A stretch of DNA of 45,071 nucleotides from Alphaproteobacteria bacterium (GTDB taxonomy: Bacteria; Pseudomonadota; Alphaproteobacteria; SHVZ01). This document shows, piece by piece, positions 16,695 through 21,301 of this stretch (positions are counted from its first letter, which is position 1; the number at the start of each line of letters is the position of its first letter). Where the stretch lies: contig CAXNIC010000003.1 of assembly GCA_964201945.1 (NCBI GenBank), forward strand, positions 1 through 45,071, read 5' to 3'. The position numbers were made by a program, and so were the translations under genes. The notes under the pieces are model-generated. The model had not been told where the DNA came from, did no database searches, and saw only the letters and a list, made by a program, of their open reading frames with translations.

Positions 16695-17222
16695 TCAGAC
16701 GTCGCCGCGCGAGATCGCTTCATGGAGCGGCACGGCGGCGTCGACCATCTTTCCTGCGAGCTCCTGAGCCTCCTCGATAGTCAGAGGCTCCCGGAGATTG
16801 TGCAGGCGGTTGGCGATCGGACCGAAGGCTCGGATCACCCCCTCCAAGATTGAGCGTGGAGTAGGGCGAGGCGGGGCGACGACCGGTATCGCGCGGCCCT
16901 TCTCATGGGCAGCGACCAGCGCCTTGAACTCTGGCCTCGCGGCCAACCAGTTGCAGACGAGCCGCACGTTGGTGTCGGTCGTCGGCGCCAGAGCTGTACC
17001 GGGGTCAGACACGAATGCGATGATCTTTGCGGCCGCCTCGTCGTAGTCCGGTCCCGCATGTATCAGCGCAGTATTTGCCAGCATCTCCTCGTTCGGTCGG
17101 GGAGCGAGGTCGAAGCCAGTGGCCGTGGCGATGATGCTGCCGGTGGCATCGTTCGAGTAGACTTTGCCTGGCAGCGTCGGGTCTAGCAACCACGGTCCTT
17201 TGGTGAACTTTGGCAGGGACAT
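16695..17222 (-). CDS. Hypothetical protein, T.GPW...AN..LI family
   Basis: FTKGPW and ANTALIHAGPD. Confidence 0.75.
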   Translation of the reverse strand: MSLPKFTKGPWLLDPTLPGKVYSNDATGSIIATATGFDLAPRPNEEMLANTALIHAGPDYDEAAAKIIAFVSDPGTALAPTTDTNVRLVCNWLAARPEFKALVAAHEKGRAIPVVAPPRPTPRSILEGVIRAFGPIANRLHNLREPLTIEEAQELAGKMVDAAVPLHEAISRGDV

Positions 17223-17230
17223 TTCGTCCT

Positions 17231-17264
17231 CCTCATCAGTTGGAGACCGGCTAGGCCGGTTTCG
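17231..17264 (-). ncRNA. Hammerhead-like element 32
   Basis: Consensus copy; TAG in loop III. Confidence 0.65.
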
Positions 17265-17625
17265 GTGTGGTGAGCCTGGCGCTCTTGAAGAACTCCGCGG
17301 ACTGCTCCGGGATGTCGGAGGTGTCGATCGCCTCGTGCCGCAGCAGCTGCTTGGCGCTGACCCACGCCGTGAGGGCGTCGGCCACCGTCGCCCTTTTGTC
17401 GCCGAGCATGGCCCGGGCAACGGCATCAGACAGGTCATCGCCCGCCTTGAGCAGCTGGGGAGCCGCCATGATCAGGTGAGCGTTCTCGATGTCGGTATCG
17501 GTGATATTGCCACCGCCGCGGGGGAACACCGTCGCGTGCGGCATGTAGCCGACTTCTGCGATGGCGATCGCCTGCTTGGTCAATCGGATCTCCCATGGCA
17601 TGGGCGTGTGATTGACGTCGGGCAT
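17251..17625 (-). CDS. Hypothetical protein, T.GPW...NA.LI.AAP.LL family
   Basis: HTPMPW and ENAHLIMAAPQLL; ends PKPA*. Confidence 0.75.
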   Translation of the reverse strand: MPDVNHTPMPWEIRLTKQAIAIAEVGYMPHATVFPRGGGNITDTDIENAHLIMAAPQLLKAGDDLSDAVARAMLGDKRATVADALTAWVSAKQLLRHEAIDTSDIPEQSAEFFKSARLTTPKPA

Positions 17626-17632
17626 GTCATCT

Positions 17633-17669
17633 CCTCATCAGGTTGAACGACCGGGTCTCCCCGGTTTCG
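17633..17669 (-). ncRNA. Hammerhead-like element 33
   Basis: GAGA (GNRA) loop III. Confidence 0.65.
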
Positions 17670-17670
17670 A

Positions 17671-17883
17671 TCAGGCGATCGCCATCAGGAGCTCCTCGGC
17701 TCCGTAGACGAACGGCCCGCCGCACTTCGCGCAATCGTAGTCGCGCGCGTCCGGCTCGCACCCGTCAGCTTCGGTTCCGCAGCTGGTGCAGAAGCCGACG
17801 TTGTCGAGCCCCTGGTTCGAGCGCTGCACGCCGTCCATGATGACGTCCGGCGTGAGGCTCGCGTGCATAGGCTTGCACAGCAT
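17671..17883 (-). CDS. Small zinc-ribbon protein
   Basis: GFCTSCG...CEPDARDYDCAKCG...VYGAEE. Confidence 0.75.
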   Translation of the reverse strand: MLCKPMHASLTPDVIMDGVQRSNQGLDNVGFCTSCGTEADGCEPDARDYDCAKCGGPFVYGAEELLMAIA

Positions 17884-17894
17884 GGCTGTCTCCT

Positions 17895-17930
17895 AAAAGA
17901 AAAAGGGCCCGATGATCTCTCATCAGGCCC
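17895..17930 (-). terminator. Intrinsic terminator overlapping a hammerhead-like core
   Basis: GGGCCUGAUGA-GAGA-UCAUCGGGCCC followed by UUUUUCUUUU. Confidence 0.8.
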
Positions 17931-17958
17931 TCGGGCAACCGGGTTGACCCCGGTTTCG
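17918..17958 (-). ncRNA. Hammerhead-like element 34 (GUU triplet)
   Basis: CGAAAC CGGG/CCCG GUU GCC-CGAG-GGC CUGAUGAG; GUU still satisfies NUH. Confidence 0.62.
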
Positions 17959-17960
17959 AC

Positions 17961-18437
17961 TTATGCGGCGACGTCCAGCCGCTCGGGCTTGGACATCGAG
18001 CTCGGCTCGATCGTCGCCATCAGGTGGAACTCGACGAAGCGGCTGGGGTCCAGCATGAACCCCGGCCGGTCGAGATCGAGATTGACCAGCCCGGACGACG
18101 CCGGCGGGACTCCGTCGGCGACGCTGAGCGTGATGTGGTACGGCTTGCCGTCCTGCCGGAAGGGCTGTGCGCCCTCGAGCATGACGCCGAGCGAGTCCAC
18201 GCGGTCGTCGACGTGACGGCCGTAGATGGTGACCAGGATGGGCTTCCCCGTCCGGATCTTCTGAGCGATCTCCGCGGGCAGGCCCTGGAGCGCCTCCTCC
18301 CTCGACTTCGCCCCGTAGCCGAGCGTCACATGGAACGCGTGGCCGTTGGGGTGCCGAGGCGGATGGTTCTTCAGGACATGCGCCCGCAGGGTCTGCGGCA
18401 GAACCAGCTTCACGATGAAGGGTCTCTGCTTGCTCAT
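17961..18437 (-). CDS. 2H phosphoesterase family protein
   Basis: Two HxT motifs: FHVTL and YHITL(S...GVPP..S). Confidence 0.75.
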   Translation of the reverse strand: MSKQRPFIVKLVLPQTLRAHVLKNHPPRHPNGHAFHVTLGYGAKSREEALQGLPAEIAQKIRTGKPILVTIYGRHVDDRVDSLGVMLEGAQPFRQDGKPYHITLSVADGVPPASSGLVNLDLDRPGFMLDPSRFVEFHLMATIEPSSMSKPERLDVAA

Positions 18438-18446
18438 GGTGTAGCT

Positions 18447-18496
18447 CCTCATCAGATGCCAGCGGATTGCTGGTCGACCAGCCGAGGCTGGTTTCG
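18447..18496 (-). ncRNA. Hammerhead-like element 35
   Basis: Stem III CAGCC/GGCUG; stem I CCAGC/GCUGG. Confidence 0.67.
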
Positions 18497-18715
18497 TCAG
18501 GACCGTGCAGCCTTGACGAGCTGCACCATCGAGGTGAGCAGAAAGCGCTGCTCCTGCATGATGGCGTCGAGCACGATGTCGCGCACGTCGACCGGGACGA
18601 GCTCGGCGACCATTGACGATTTCGAGAAGGCCTCGTAGGCCCGCTCGCTCTCGGCGAAGCGCTTCGCGTCCAGGCACAGGCCGTTGGTGACATGGCTCGG
18701 CAATGGCTTAGACAT
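18497..18715 (-). CDS. Hypothetical protein
   Basis: 72 aa; TGA abuts CGAAAC. Confidence 0.68.
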   Translation of the reverse strand: MSKPLPSHVTNGLCLDAKRFAESERAYEAFSKSSMVAELVPVDVRDIVLDAIMQEQRFLLTSMVQLVKAARS

Positions 18716-18723
18716 TTCTGTCT

Positions 18724-18760
18724 CCTCATCAGGTTGTTCGACCGGCCGAAGCCGGTTTCG
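18724..18760 (-). ncRNA. Hammerhead-like element 36
   Basis: UUCG loop III; GAACAAC stem I. Confidence 0.65.
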
Positions 18761-19000
18761 TCAGTCGCCCGCGGCCGCTTGGGGAGCAGCCTTCGCGGCG
18801 ATGCGCTTCATGCGGCGCTGGAAGTTGCGGATGAATTGCCTGGTCACGTGGACCTCGCTGTCGAGGTCGTTGACCGCGTAGGCCAGCCGTTTCGTCGGCC
18901 AGCACTTGACCACGGCGGCGCCGGCTCCGGCCAGCCACTCCAGGCGCTGCAGCGTCTTCCGCAGTTCCTCCAGGAGCTGCTGCTCGGTGATTTTTGCCAT
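18761..19000 (-). CDS. Hypothetical protein
   Basis: 79 aa; GGAGG SD. Confidence 0.7.
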   Translation of the reverse strand: MAKITEQQLLEELRKTLQRLEWLAGAGAAVVKCWPTKRLAYAVNDLDSEVHVTRQFIRNFQRRMKRIAAKAAPQAAAGD

Positions 19001-19018
19001 ATTTGTCCTCCGGACGTG

Positions 19019-19053
19019 AAAAGGGCCGCGGTGAGATTATCACCACGGCCCTT
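19019..19053 (-). terminator. Probable intrinsic terminator/hairpin
   Basis: AAGGGCCGUGGUGA-uaauc-UCACCGCGGCCCUU-UU; short U tract. Confidence 0.6.
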
Positions 19054-19071
19054 GTCGGTTGTGCGCCAGGC

Positions 19072-19281
19072 TTAGTCGGCCTGGGCGGTCTCGGTCGGCG
19101 TCTTGGTCATCAGCGCCTTGCCGGCGCTGACCGCCTTGTCGAAGCCGCGCTGGGCGGCCTCGTAACCGCCGCTCGCCTGCACGGCCTTGTGAGCCAGGTA
19201 GGCGGGCGTCGCGACGATGGCGGCCGCGATCTCGGTCCCGTTGGAGGGCTTGAGGGCGGCGGCCAGCTTGTTGAAGTTCAT
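19072..19281 (-). CDS. Hypothetical protein (paralog of 19844..20077)
   Basis: MNFNK start with GGAG SD; LKPSNGTEIAAAIVATPAY. Confidence 0.7.
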   Translation of the reverse strand: MNFNKLAAALKPSNGTEIAAAIVATPAYLAHKAVQASGGYEAAQRGFDKAVSAGKALMTKTPTETAQAD

Positions 19282-19297
19282 GACTGTCTCCAGTTTT

Positions 19298-19373
19298 GAG
19301 AGTTTCGGTCCTTGCCGAGGACCTCGTCGGGCGACGTCTGCATCCGGGATGGATGCTGGCTGTCGCGACTCTC
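19298..19373 (-). ncRNA. Complete type III hammerhead-like fold (U4C core variant)
   Basis: GAGAGU-C-GCGAC[..GCAUCC/GGAUGC..]GUCGC-CCGACGA-GGUCCU-cggca-AGGACC-GAA-ACUCUC; all three stems are 5-6 bp. Confidence 0.75.
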
Positions 19374-19764
19374 TTCCTTTCGCGCGCTCCCTGCCCAGGG
19401 AAGGCAACGCCACGGCTTGCGGCTACCGTGCGCGACCGGCCGCCGAGAGGGCGTGGCGGATCATTTCGTCAATTTCTGACGAGATCTGCCACGAAGTCCT
19501 CGCGGGCTTGGTACTGGCCGGACCGACTGCATCTCGGCGCTTCTCGATCGAGGGTGGGTCTGCCGGAGCCCAAGATCGCGGTGGTCTGCGAAGGTGCTCC
19601 CATCGAAGGGCGCCTCCCGCGTGCGCTTCTGCACGCGGCCCAGGCGGCCGGTCACAATTCTCGATCTAGTCGGGTTTGGTTTCGGCACCTGCCAGGGTGC
19701 CCAAGGCTCGTCTAAGAGCTCGTCAGGCGACTTCGGATCGAGATACTCTGATCCAGGCTGTCAC
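19367..19764 (-). ncRNA. Putative ~398-nt structured ncRNA between two hammerhead-like cleavage sites
   Basis: No convincing ORF; many hairpins (e.g. 19452-19493); bounded by two GUC sites. Confidence 0.5.
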
Positions 19765-19773
19765 GACCGCCCA
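19671..19773 (-). ncRNA. Type III hammerhead-like fold with branched stem II region
   Basis: GGU-C-GUGAC[..GGAUC/GAUCC..]GUCGC-CUGACGA-[GCUC/GAGC]-[GGCACC/GGUGCC]-GAA-ACC; stem I homologous to 19298..19373. Confidence 0.55.
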
Positions 19774-19843
19774 TGTTGACCCTGGGCTGGTATCGTCCGA
19801 CGCTGTTGCGCGCCGGCACCGCCGGTCTGGCGGGTTTCAGCAG

Positions 19844-20077
19844 TCACTCGGCCGGATGCTTGGCATCGTACTCGGCGCGAGCGGCGGACATGCGCCGGTA
19901 GTGTCCGGCGGCGGTGGCGACCACCGCGTAGGCGGGGGGCGCCGCGATCATCGCGGCGACCTGGAGGCCGTTGGCGGGCTTCAGGTCTGCCTTCATCGTC
20001 TCGATCTTCACGTCGACCTTGGAAACGGCCAGGTAGCAGGACGCTTCGCGAGCGATGATGTGCTTGATCGGCTTCAT
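19844..20077 (-). CDS. Hypothetical protein (paralog of 19072..19281)
   Basis: GAGGAG SD; LKPANGLQVAAMIAAPPAY. Confidence 0.7.
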   Translation of the reverse strand: MKPIKHIIAREASCYLAVSKVDVKIETMKADLKPANGLQVAAMIAAPPAYAVVATAAGHYRRMSAARAEYDAKHPAE

Positions 20078-20101
20078 GATTGTCTCCTCGTTGTGGCGGC
20101 C

Positions 20102-20389
20102 TCAGCCGCCGGTTTGCTTGTTCGTCCGCTCCAGGGCCCACCTCATCCGCTTCTCCAGGCTGGGATCGGGGGGGATGCCCTCGATCTCGCCTTTCGAAGC
20201 CTGGTAGACCCCGCGGACCACCGGCATCACCCCGCCTTGCCGATCGGCGAAACCGCCCAGGGGGCCGAGGAACTCTCGGGTCCGGTGTGATTTCGTCATC
20301 TCGGTCAGGACCGTCTTCTCGAAGTCGTTCTTCGCGATCCGGTCAATGCGGGCTAGATGTCGGCGTACTTTCCGTTCCACTTCTGGCAT
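20102..20389 (-). CDS. Hypothetical protein, first gene of the leftward operon
   Basis: 95-aa basic ORF next to the AT-rich region. Confidence 0.65.
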   Translation of the reverse strand: MPEVERKVRRHLARIDRIAKNDFEKTVLTEMTKSHRTREFLGPLGGFADRQGGVMPVVRGVYQASKGEIEGIPPDPSLEKRMRWALERTNKQTGG

Positions 20390-20419
20390 GGGTTGAAGTC
20401 TCCAGGATGTGTGGGGGGA

Positions 20420-20509
20420 GCGTAATCACCCTTGATTACGCACTGTATATATTAGGATTTGTCGCGCTATTTCAAGTAGTTGGCGGTCAAGAATATGAGA
20501 TATTCTTGA
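20420..20509. promoter_or_regulatory. AT-rich divergent control region with two perfect inverted repeats
   Basis: GCGTAATCA-ccct-TGATTACGC (20420-20441) and TCAAGAATAT-gag-ATATTCTTGA (20487-20509). Confidence 0.6.
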
Positions 20510-20668
20510 GTATACAGAGTCATTACTGTCTCTGCGGCGTATTCGCGCACCAATACTGAACGGTATATGTGGTGCATGGTGACAAATTGCCACCGAAATC
20601 TGGTATCTAGCTGTGACTGACCAGTCGACCGCTCGGCAGGCGACGACGCTGGCTCAGGGGGTGGGTGA

Positions 20669-21301
20669 ATGGCAAAGAAGCGGTCCGGACACCGGGCCAG
20701 CAACCACAAGAACGTAGTGATCCAGCTCGTCCGCGACCGGACGACGGGGACGTATGTCGCCGCCAAGGCCAATGACGGCCCGACGCCCGAGCGGATGAAG
20801 AAGCAGGGCGGCTTCCGCAAGGTCCTCCGCGGCGTCTCCCGGTCCGGCGTCGCCATGGCCGAGGGCTATGTCGCGATCGGCGAGAACCCGATCGACTACC
20901 TGGACGAGCGCGGGCTGCTGGGATCAGGGGTGAAGCGCAAGCGCCGCCTCGCCGCCGCCGACTGGGCGCTCCGCATCTACCTGGAGGCCGGCTTCAACCC
21001 CCGCGTCATCATCCGCTATTCCGAGCCGACATCGGGCGGCACCGGCGAGATCTCCGACAGCCGGGCCCGCGCCATGACCAAGTATCGGCGGATGTGGAAG
21101 CAGCTGGTGCTCTCCGACGCCCTCCTCGTGGTGAACACCTGCTGCAAGTACCAGGGCCTGCCCGACAACCGCATCCAGGATCTCTGCGAGGCGCTCGACC
21201 TGGTCGCCCGGTGGCTGCGAATCGAGGGATACATCGCCGGCCGGCTCAAGGCGTGGCTCCCGCCCGGATCGCGGCCGACGTGGGGCGGCGGGAAATCCTA
21301 G
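20669..21301 (+). CDS. DUF6456-like phage protein (possible late regulator)
   Basis: Helical pattern ..RLAAA..AG.. / L.EALD.VA.W; position just upstream of the packaging genes. Confidence 0.5.
   Translation: MAKKRSGHRASNHKNVVIQLVRDRTTGTYVAAKANDGPTPERMKKQGGFRKVLRGVSRSGVAMAEGYVAIGENPIDYLDERGLLGSGVKRKRRLAAADWALRIYLEAGFNPRVIIRYSEPTSGGTGEISDSRARAMTKYRRMWKQLVLSDALLVVNTCCKYQGLPDNRIQDLCEALDLVARWLRIEGYIAGRLKAWLPPGSRPTWGGGKS

Follow-up and report, generated by a model that had tools for sequence, protein, structure and literature searches.

Hammerhead ribozymes of mixed types flank single genes or short blocks in phages and prophages, and three such arrays cleave in vitro, as described in the part of Perreault et al. 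(2011, PMC3088659) available to us. In the corresponding part of de la Pena et al. (2017, PMC6155905) phage hammerheads are found to flank small, non-conserved ORFs, and their role is left open. The same partial source describes retrozymes and viroid-like circular RNAs, in which two type III hammerheads of the same polarity lie around a few hundred non-coding nucleotides. The locus described here can be compared with both kinds of system. As far as the available parts of the two papers go, it resembles the clustered phage and prophage hammerheads in that several hammerheads occupy the intergenic gaps of a single phage transcription unit and have the polarity of its coding strand, in that the permutation types are mixed, and in that cutting of a long transcript is the presumed outcome. 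It differs from them in that the segment bracketed by its two type III-derived motifs is non-coding, that one motif carries a U4C substitution and the other an 18-nt insertion in the core, and that the array is unusually dense. With the retrozymes and viroid-like RNAs it shares the layout of two same-polarity motifs around non-coding sequence, whereas its two ribozymes are not interchangeable, its setting is a phage, and there are no repeat or retroelement features.

The window analysed is a whole contig of 45,071 bp from a 524-contig, 75%-complete metagenome bin, and is the genome of an uncultured tailed phage. The terminase, portal, head-morphogenesis, adaptor and tail genes are on the plus strand from 20669 onward, while small genes, most of them without relatives, form a leftward series on the minus strand from 20389 to 58 (early arm); an AT-rich region at about 20400-20660 (45-51% GC) is the point from which the two arms diverge. 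The two type III-derived motifs, HH-A and HH-B, are in a 562-nt gap between the genes P0001 and P0002, within the first leftward (early) transcription unit. The features in and around the gap, in the direction of transcription, are:

19844..20077, minus strand: P0001, early gene of 77 aa upstream of the gap (GC3 0.88, codon score 0.83)
19790..19838, minus strand: decayed hammerhead of type II, following the P0001 stop codon directly, recognised by alignment with 8 array elements
19671..19773, minus strand: HH-B, paralog of HH-A with a canonical CUGACGA, predicted cut after C19765
19702..19719, minus strand: 18-nt insertion in HH-B between A9 and G10.1, recognised by structural comparison with HH-A
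19374..19670, minus strand: spacer of 297 nt without a convincing ORF in codon and homology analyses
19298..19373, minus strand: HH-A, type III hammerhead motif with U4C core, 17 nt upstream of the P0002 ATG, predicted cut after C19367
19072..19281, minus strand: P0002, early gene of 69 aa downstream of HH-A (codon score 1.05)
19019..19051, minus strand: likely terminator read from the sequence, a 12-bp hairpin followed by UUUU directly after P0002

P0001 and P0002 are partial paralogs of each other (13 of 28 residues identical, E 3e-7), and P0002 matched only itself among 5.8 billion clusters. The hairpin at 19019-19051 was missed by a consensus terminator scan because it is followed by only 4 U; it probably ends a short first early unit, consisting of three small genes and the gap, before the main array. 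A sigma-70-like promoter was not found in 17800-20700.

The HH-A/HH-B locus is the promoter-proximal head of a very dense array of type II hammerheads. A strict pattern identifies 36 elements on the minus strand between early genes (23-18759 of the window), i.e. 36 elements in 19 kb, and in nearly every early gap below 19000 the order on this strand is GAAAC, hairpin, GUC, linker or stem I, CUGANGA, GGAG and start codon. In Rfam 23 of the 36 were among 30 sub-threshold matches as Hammerhead_II, the best one scoring 36.9 bits against a gathering score of 37. The two motifs of the gap are real, paralogous and hammerhead-derived, and HH-A adds to the phage hammerhead population a member with a known attenuating variant. 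In the explanation that we prefer, and to which we would give roughly an even chance, HH-A cuts the early transcript, HH-B is crippled or conditional, and the spacer is an untranslated remnant.

The original prediction described HH-A as a three-stem hammerhead with a CCGACGA (U4C) core, and both its sequence and its MFE fold agree with that description. Stem III is GAGAGU/ACUCUC (6 bp) with the A15.1-U16.1 pair present, and C17 sits in a GUC cleavage site. Stem I starts with GCGAC/GUCGC (5 bp), continues in an asymmetric internal loop (AGCCA/AGAC) and ends in a 6-bp inner hairpin; stem II is GGUCCU-CGGCA-AGGACC, followed by GAA, with G10.1-C11.1 present. In HH-A, as in HH-B with its insert looped out, three helices meet at the core with the A15.1-U16.1, G10.1-C11.1 and N1.1-N2.1 pairs, of which I and II are closed by loops and III is open. 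The equivalent of CUGANGA is contiguous with the adjacent stems, within a limit of 1-2 inserted nt, and U4C is the sole deviation in the core, which places HH-A outside the strict hammerhead consensus. In tertiary-stabilised 'extended' hammerheads an internal loop in stem I faces a loop-capped stem II. HH-A has this layout, with 5 bp of stem I before the internal loop and 6 bp in stem II, and in both HH-A and HH-B a putative contact would be pairing between GCC of the stem I loop and GGC of loop II.

The MFE structure of the HH-A 76-mer is a three-way junction of -31.0 kcal/mol (z -3.4; 0 of 200 shuffles were as good). The probability of the hammerhead fold was 0.54 for the motif alone, 0.55 and 0.38 with flanks and 0.21 in a 594-nt context, and this is the dominant predicted fold. 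For orientation, the same probability was at least 0.003 in 34 of the 36 array elements, with a median of 0.66, in a control that constrained mostly stem III only and is therefore not strictly like for like with HH-A and HH-B. In a search with 101 nt the Rfam type III model RF00008 (Hammerhead_3) aligned to HH-A along its full length of 54 positions, with a score of 28.8 bits (E 8e-5). The score is less than the gathering score of 48.5, and the match was missed in larger searches; the low score is due to U4C and to the 25-nt insert in stem I (internal loop plus hairpin), which are the two differences from a family whose cleavage site, core order and three stems HH-A otherwise has. HH-B, in contrast, gave no match to RF00008 at all.

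It is possible that U4C inactivates HH-A. According to the available part of Perreault et al. (2011, PMC3088659), a viroid hammerhead with the U4C change lost much of its activity in vitro, yet kept enough in vivo for infectivity; the filter used in that study, as described in the same part, rejects core deviations. This natural variant has the same single core substitution as HH-A, the difference being that the viroid is a replicating plant RNA, whereas HH-A would be part of the transcript of a DNA phage. Taking the variant and the predicted fold together, we consider it fairly probable that HH-A is active in self-cleavage.

HH-A and HH-B have two blocks in common, GUCG(C/U)GACAGCC (direct repeat D1) and GUCGCC(C/U)GACGAG (D2), whose copies are 398 and 377 nt apart, respectively. 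The shift in spacing supports the 18-nt insertion in HH-B. The outer part of stem I is identical except for one G-C to G-U change, the AGCC of the internal loop is retained in both motifs, and loop II is CGGCA in HH-A and CUGGCA in HH-B. In stem II three of the six pairs are changed on both sides and all still pair. The core and junction positions are identical in 17 of 18 cases, the exception being U4. On these sequences HH-A and HH-B are paralogs under selection for hammerhead pairing, the covariation being that of just two sequences.

The same comparison bears on the question whether the motifs could be chance look-alikes without hammerhead ancestry. Loose descriptors do match chance sites: our type III descriptor, which HH-B matches with n1=5, n2=1 and n3=3, also found in the real window a chance-like site of the HH-B level at 33861-33718, where it is antisense to one of the late genes, and at 13890-13752 a site that matches less well; HH-B taken alone is at that level. 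In 100 dinucleotide shuffles of the 45-kb window, searched on both strands, the expected number of chance matches per window was 0.04 at the level of HH-B and 0.01 at that of HH-A. HH-B is credible mainly because of its homology to HH-A and its position, and not because of the descriptor. The two motifs share an intergenic gap, in which they are on the transcribed strand at a distance of 398 nt, and have more than 16 non-core nucleotides in common; the genome has 36 other hammerhead elements, and HH-A has its RF00008 match. With these observations we regard a coincidence as very improbable.

HH-B had been described as a homolog with the same stem I architecture, a canonical CUGACGA and a branched stem II. 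The first two parts of this description stand, and the supposed branching is better described as a normal 6-bp stem II plus the 18-nt insertion. The counterpart of stem II of HH-A is the 6-bp hairpin GGCACC-CUGGCA-GGUGCC (19701-19684). With the insertion looped out the helices have 3+3, 5 (plus 5+3) and 6 bp. The interruption of stem III is a 1x3 internal loop between GGU/ACC and GGG/CCC, and every core nucleotide is at consensus. The insertion can fold on itself into a hairpin of 4 bp (GCUC-UUAGAC-GAGC), and, since it repeats the heptamer GACGAGC, it has the appearance of a small duplication in tandem. It separates A9 from G10.1 by 18 nt, whereas in known hammerhead alignments never more than 1-2 nt are inserted next to CUGAnGA, as stated in the available part of Eckert et al. 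(2023, PMC10085705). When 126 nt with HH-B were searched against the Rfam hammerheads, there was no match at E<=10.

The fold probability of HH-B was 0.50 in isolation, but with flanks it fell to 1e-8 (161 nt), 2e-8 (244 nt) and 1e-4 (562 nt), because of two competing pairings. In one of these the upstream sequence GCCCAGGG pairs with CCUUGGGC, spanning the insert and stem II; in the other the downstream sequence GAUCGAGA pairs with the inner hairpin of stem I. Co-transcriptional folding could rescue HH-B if it cut before the competitors form. In view of the predicted folds we consider self-cleavage by HH-B doubtful, and HH-B, a form of the hammerhead without precedent, is probably damaged. 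Against the reading as a damaged copy it can be said that the core was kept in spite of heavy divergence elsewhere in the motif, which argues for recent or continuing selection. With HH-B nature provides a sequence on which one can ask whether an additional helix beside CUGANGA is tolerated by the hammerhead core.

The two motifs bracket 297 nt of non-coding sequence and not an ORF or a block of ORFs. The lack of a convincing ORF, which was part of the original prediction, was confirmed by the codon scores and the protein searches. With codon log-odds trained on the phage's own genes, 19 small early genes scored leave-one-out gave 0.30-1.05 per codon and off-frames -0.7 to -1.5, whereas the best frames of the spacer gave -0.25 to +0.18. 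A 75-aa ORF with a GTG start (19688-19461) had a codon score of -0.44 and 0 matches in 1.84 billion representatives, and an open stretch of 79 codons in frame 1 also had 0 matches; GC3 periodicity is weak and shifts between frames. The spacer was further said to be rich in hairpins, and this could be upheld only weakly. Its MFE of -141.1 is low compared with shuffles (z -3.2), with 66% of the bases paired and a 13-bp long-range helix between 19654-19642 and 19444-19432 (inverted repeat I1), which closes a domain of about 200 nt. Native windows of equal length from the early region, however, have a mean of -133.6 (sd 13.0), and the MFE of the spacer falls within their range. The only Rfam match of the spacer at E <= 10 was malK-III with E 0.95, no tRNA or tmRNA genes were found, and neither tblastx nor blastn-short detected a paralog of the spacer elsewhere in the window.

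A side observation in this region concerns the sequence TCTCGATC, which occurs 14 times in the window (4.3 expected; 0 of 100 shuffles reach 14). Three copies are in the gap (19542-19743), among them one with a perfect palindrome of 10 bp, CTCGATCGAG (19543-19552), and another is at 19999. The sequence might serve for protein binding or GATC methylation, or as an element of RNA self-pairing.

Elsewhere in the early arm, an interval between two hammerhead elements (10863-11012, minus strand) is filled by an ORF for 49 aa, hydrophobic in character, which starts with TTG and is provided with AAGGAGG as a strong site. The interval is thus not a second non-coding cassette, and the gap between P0001 and P0002 is the sole long non-coding stretch seen in the early arm.

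According to the explanation that we prefer, the 562-nt gap holds three hammerhead-derived elements in differing states of repair. HH-A, which is near consensus and looks tertiary-stabilised, would most likely still self-cleave after C19367. Such a cut would give the P0002 message a 5'-OH, with two hairpins at its beginning, and would leave a 2',3'-cyclic phosphate on the RNA upstream; HH-A would do what the 36 elements of type II downstream in the operon are presumed to do. HH-B, with its insertion, its interrupted stem III and its competing flanks, would most likely be a crippled copy or one with transient activity only. The intervening 297 nt would be an untranslated spacer or 3' UTR left from cassette turnover, and not a dedicated circular or trans-acting RNA. 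If so, the locus mainly documents the turnover of ribozymes, with a dead, a damaged and an attenuated copy next to one another where an array of exceptional density begins. It must be noted that a compact phage genome would be expected to delete 300 useless nucleotides, and that the 13-bp helix and the z-score of the spacer leave room for a functional RNA or DNA element.

A different explanation is that both hammerheads are active and release a linear, non-coding RNA of 398 nt very early in infection, which has a function of its own, e.g. as a decoy, a regulator or an anti-defence RNA. The core and junction positions were kept in spite of compensated divergence in stem II, in stem III and in the inner hairpin, and the insert of HH-B folds on itself and could be extruded. 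The spacer has its closing helix and is more stable than its shuffles, no other long non-coding stretch was seen between the early genes, which are tightly packed, and the spacer is in the first transcription unit, before the terminator-like hairpin. What makes us consider this explanation unlikely is that HH-B has no Rfam match, folds with probabilities of 1e-8 to 1e-4 when flanks are included, and carries an insertion of a kind absent from known alignments (PMC10085705, in the part available), that the stability of the spacer is within the native background, and that the spacer is recognised by no Rfam family (malK-III being the best match) and has no homolog in the phage records or same-family genomes searched. 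If it were true, a pair of hammerheads bracketing a non-coding RNA would mean that phage hammerheads can release RNAs besides separating messages.

The opposite possibility is that both motifs are inactive relics and the early transcript is left uncut here; the gap as a whole would then be a sequence in decay, or a region with a regulatory role at the level of DNA. Decay is in fact visible next door: the type II element at 19838-19790 has kept GAAAC, stem III (with a bulged C) and stem I, while position 17 is G and ACGAUAC replaces CUGANGA, and on this sequence the element is dead. U4C in HH-A, the insertion and the weak stem III in HH-B, the residual GC3 and codon signal that moves between frames as in an old pseudogene, and the enrichment of the palindrome-containing TCTCGATC, with its three copies in the gap, would all fit with such a state. 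The same dead neighbour, however, shows how fast an unselected core decays, whereas HH-A is otherwise flawless and has the hammerhead as its dominant fold; U4C is a documented viable natural variant (PMC3088659, in the part available), and the compensatory changes in stem II indicate selection after the duplication. On balance we give the explanation by relics a low probability, and continue to prefer a gap in which HH-A cuts and HH-B is crippled or conditional.

The original prediction went further and compared the pair with retrozymes and viroid-like RNAs, suggesting a possibly circular RNA that might act in trans on incomplete elements of the array. The layout itself was found as predicted, with type III-derived paralogs on the transcribed strand at the head of the array and non-coding sequence between them, and cuts after C19765 and C19367 would indeed give a product of 398 nt. 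A discrete RNA of this length depends on cutting by HH-B, and is made less credible by the insertion, the missing Rfam match and the low fold probability of HH-B with flanks. Circularisation in the manner of retrozymes and viroids needs ends that rebuild one hammerhead; at the circle junction the 5' strand of HH-A (GAGAGU) and the 3' strand of HH-B (ACCAAACCC) form only 2 bp of stem III, thus HH-A and HH-B are not interchangeable repeats. The opposite join, an exon-type ligation of GGCGGU with ACUCUC, allows 5 of 6 pairs. The predicted stability of the 398-nt product falls within that of native phage windows. RtcB was not found in the bin, which, at 75% completeness and with an uncertain link between bin and host, is no proof of its absence.

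The 398-nt RNA is no more complementary to the 36 elements than expected by chance: its longest complement has 11 nt, as long as or shorter than that in 21 of 100 shuffles, and on average the longest complement measures 7.17 nt, compared with 7.14 in shuffles. We also considered anti-core pairing of the spacer segment 19502-19476 with both cores (inverted repeats I3 and I4), and rejected it, as 27 of 300 and 118 of 300 shuffles were as good. The idea of a retrozyme- or viroid-like circle, formed by double cleavage and ligation and perhaps acting in trans on elements without stem I, is suggested by two same-strand hammerheads 398 nt apart around non-coding sequence, and circular or spliced products were raised as a possibility for phage arrays, none being detected, in the available part of Perreault et al. 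(2011, PMC3088659). With the 2-bp junction, the doubtful HH-B, no RtcB found in the bin, chance-level complementarity and spacer-core duplexes that are not significant, and with no plus-strand hammerhead found by the descriptor in the window, we consider both the circle and its action in trans very improbable.

The search for relatives covered several collections. In blastn the region 18700-20700 had no match among 50,697 phage records and, in the same family of genomes, one weak match of 56 nt among 11 others. Anchoring on the terminase identified two loci in IMG/VR (40-45% identity) and one metagenome contig (46%); 5 loose regular-expression matches in the terminase-anchored loci L002 and L003 had no hammerhead architecture, and L006 had 0. 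The stem I pattern shared by HH-A and HH-B had 0 matches in IMG/VR, a degenerate type III pattern found 9 loci, none folding as a hammerhead, and the RAGATH-1 hammerhead (RF03152) had no match in the bin. A look-up of RNA sequencing runs containing this DNA gave none. The patterns of the type II array had 0 matches in IMG/VR and 0 in 400 other genomes of the class, and in the GTDB representatives 8 matches, all single and chance-like.

Hammerhead cleavage leaves 2',3'-cyclic phosphate ends, and a cyclic phosphodiesterase encoded within a ribozyme array would fit with such ends. A 158-aa protein encoded in the early arm (17964-18437, minus strand) has no relatives and contains two H-x-T-x motifs (HVTL and HITL). 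In the ESM Atlas its nearest clusters with a name are those of PF08302 (tRNA_lig_CPD; score 0.96, 23 of 30 matches, TM 0.63-0.69), while Pfam, PHROGs and PDB sequence searches were blank or weak and a single-sequence structure model (AF2) was unusable (pLDDT 41). One can imagine that HH-B is active as a four-helix hammerhead of a form not in existing alignments, that together with HH-A it releases the 398-nt non-coding RNA from the earliest transcript of the phage, and that the cyclic phosphate ends, including those of about 36 downstream cuts, are handled by this protein as a CPD-like 2H phosphoesterase of the phage; we regard this combination as quite improbable.

Two further observations were made on the type II array. 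In 20 of the 36 elements there are only 5-9 nt between C17 and C3, with 1-3 closing pairs and no real stem I; GAAAC, GUC and CUGAUGA are intact in these 20, and stem III covaries. Their sequences suggest that the short elements are a stem-I-less working form of the hammerhead; a full-text search of the literature for hammerheads without stem I gave nothing relevant. The second observation concerns the element at 17957-17920 (minus strand), which overlaps a terminator-like 13-bp hairpin with a U tract at 17932-17903. The probability of the hammerhead fold at 17957-17920 is about 1e-7, so the hammerhead and terminator folds look mutually exclusive, and according to these predicted folds the segment 17903-17957 could be a cut-or-terminate switch.
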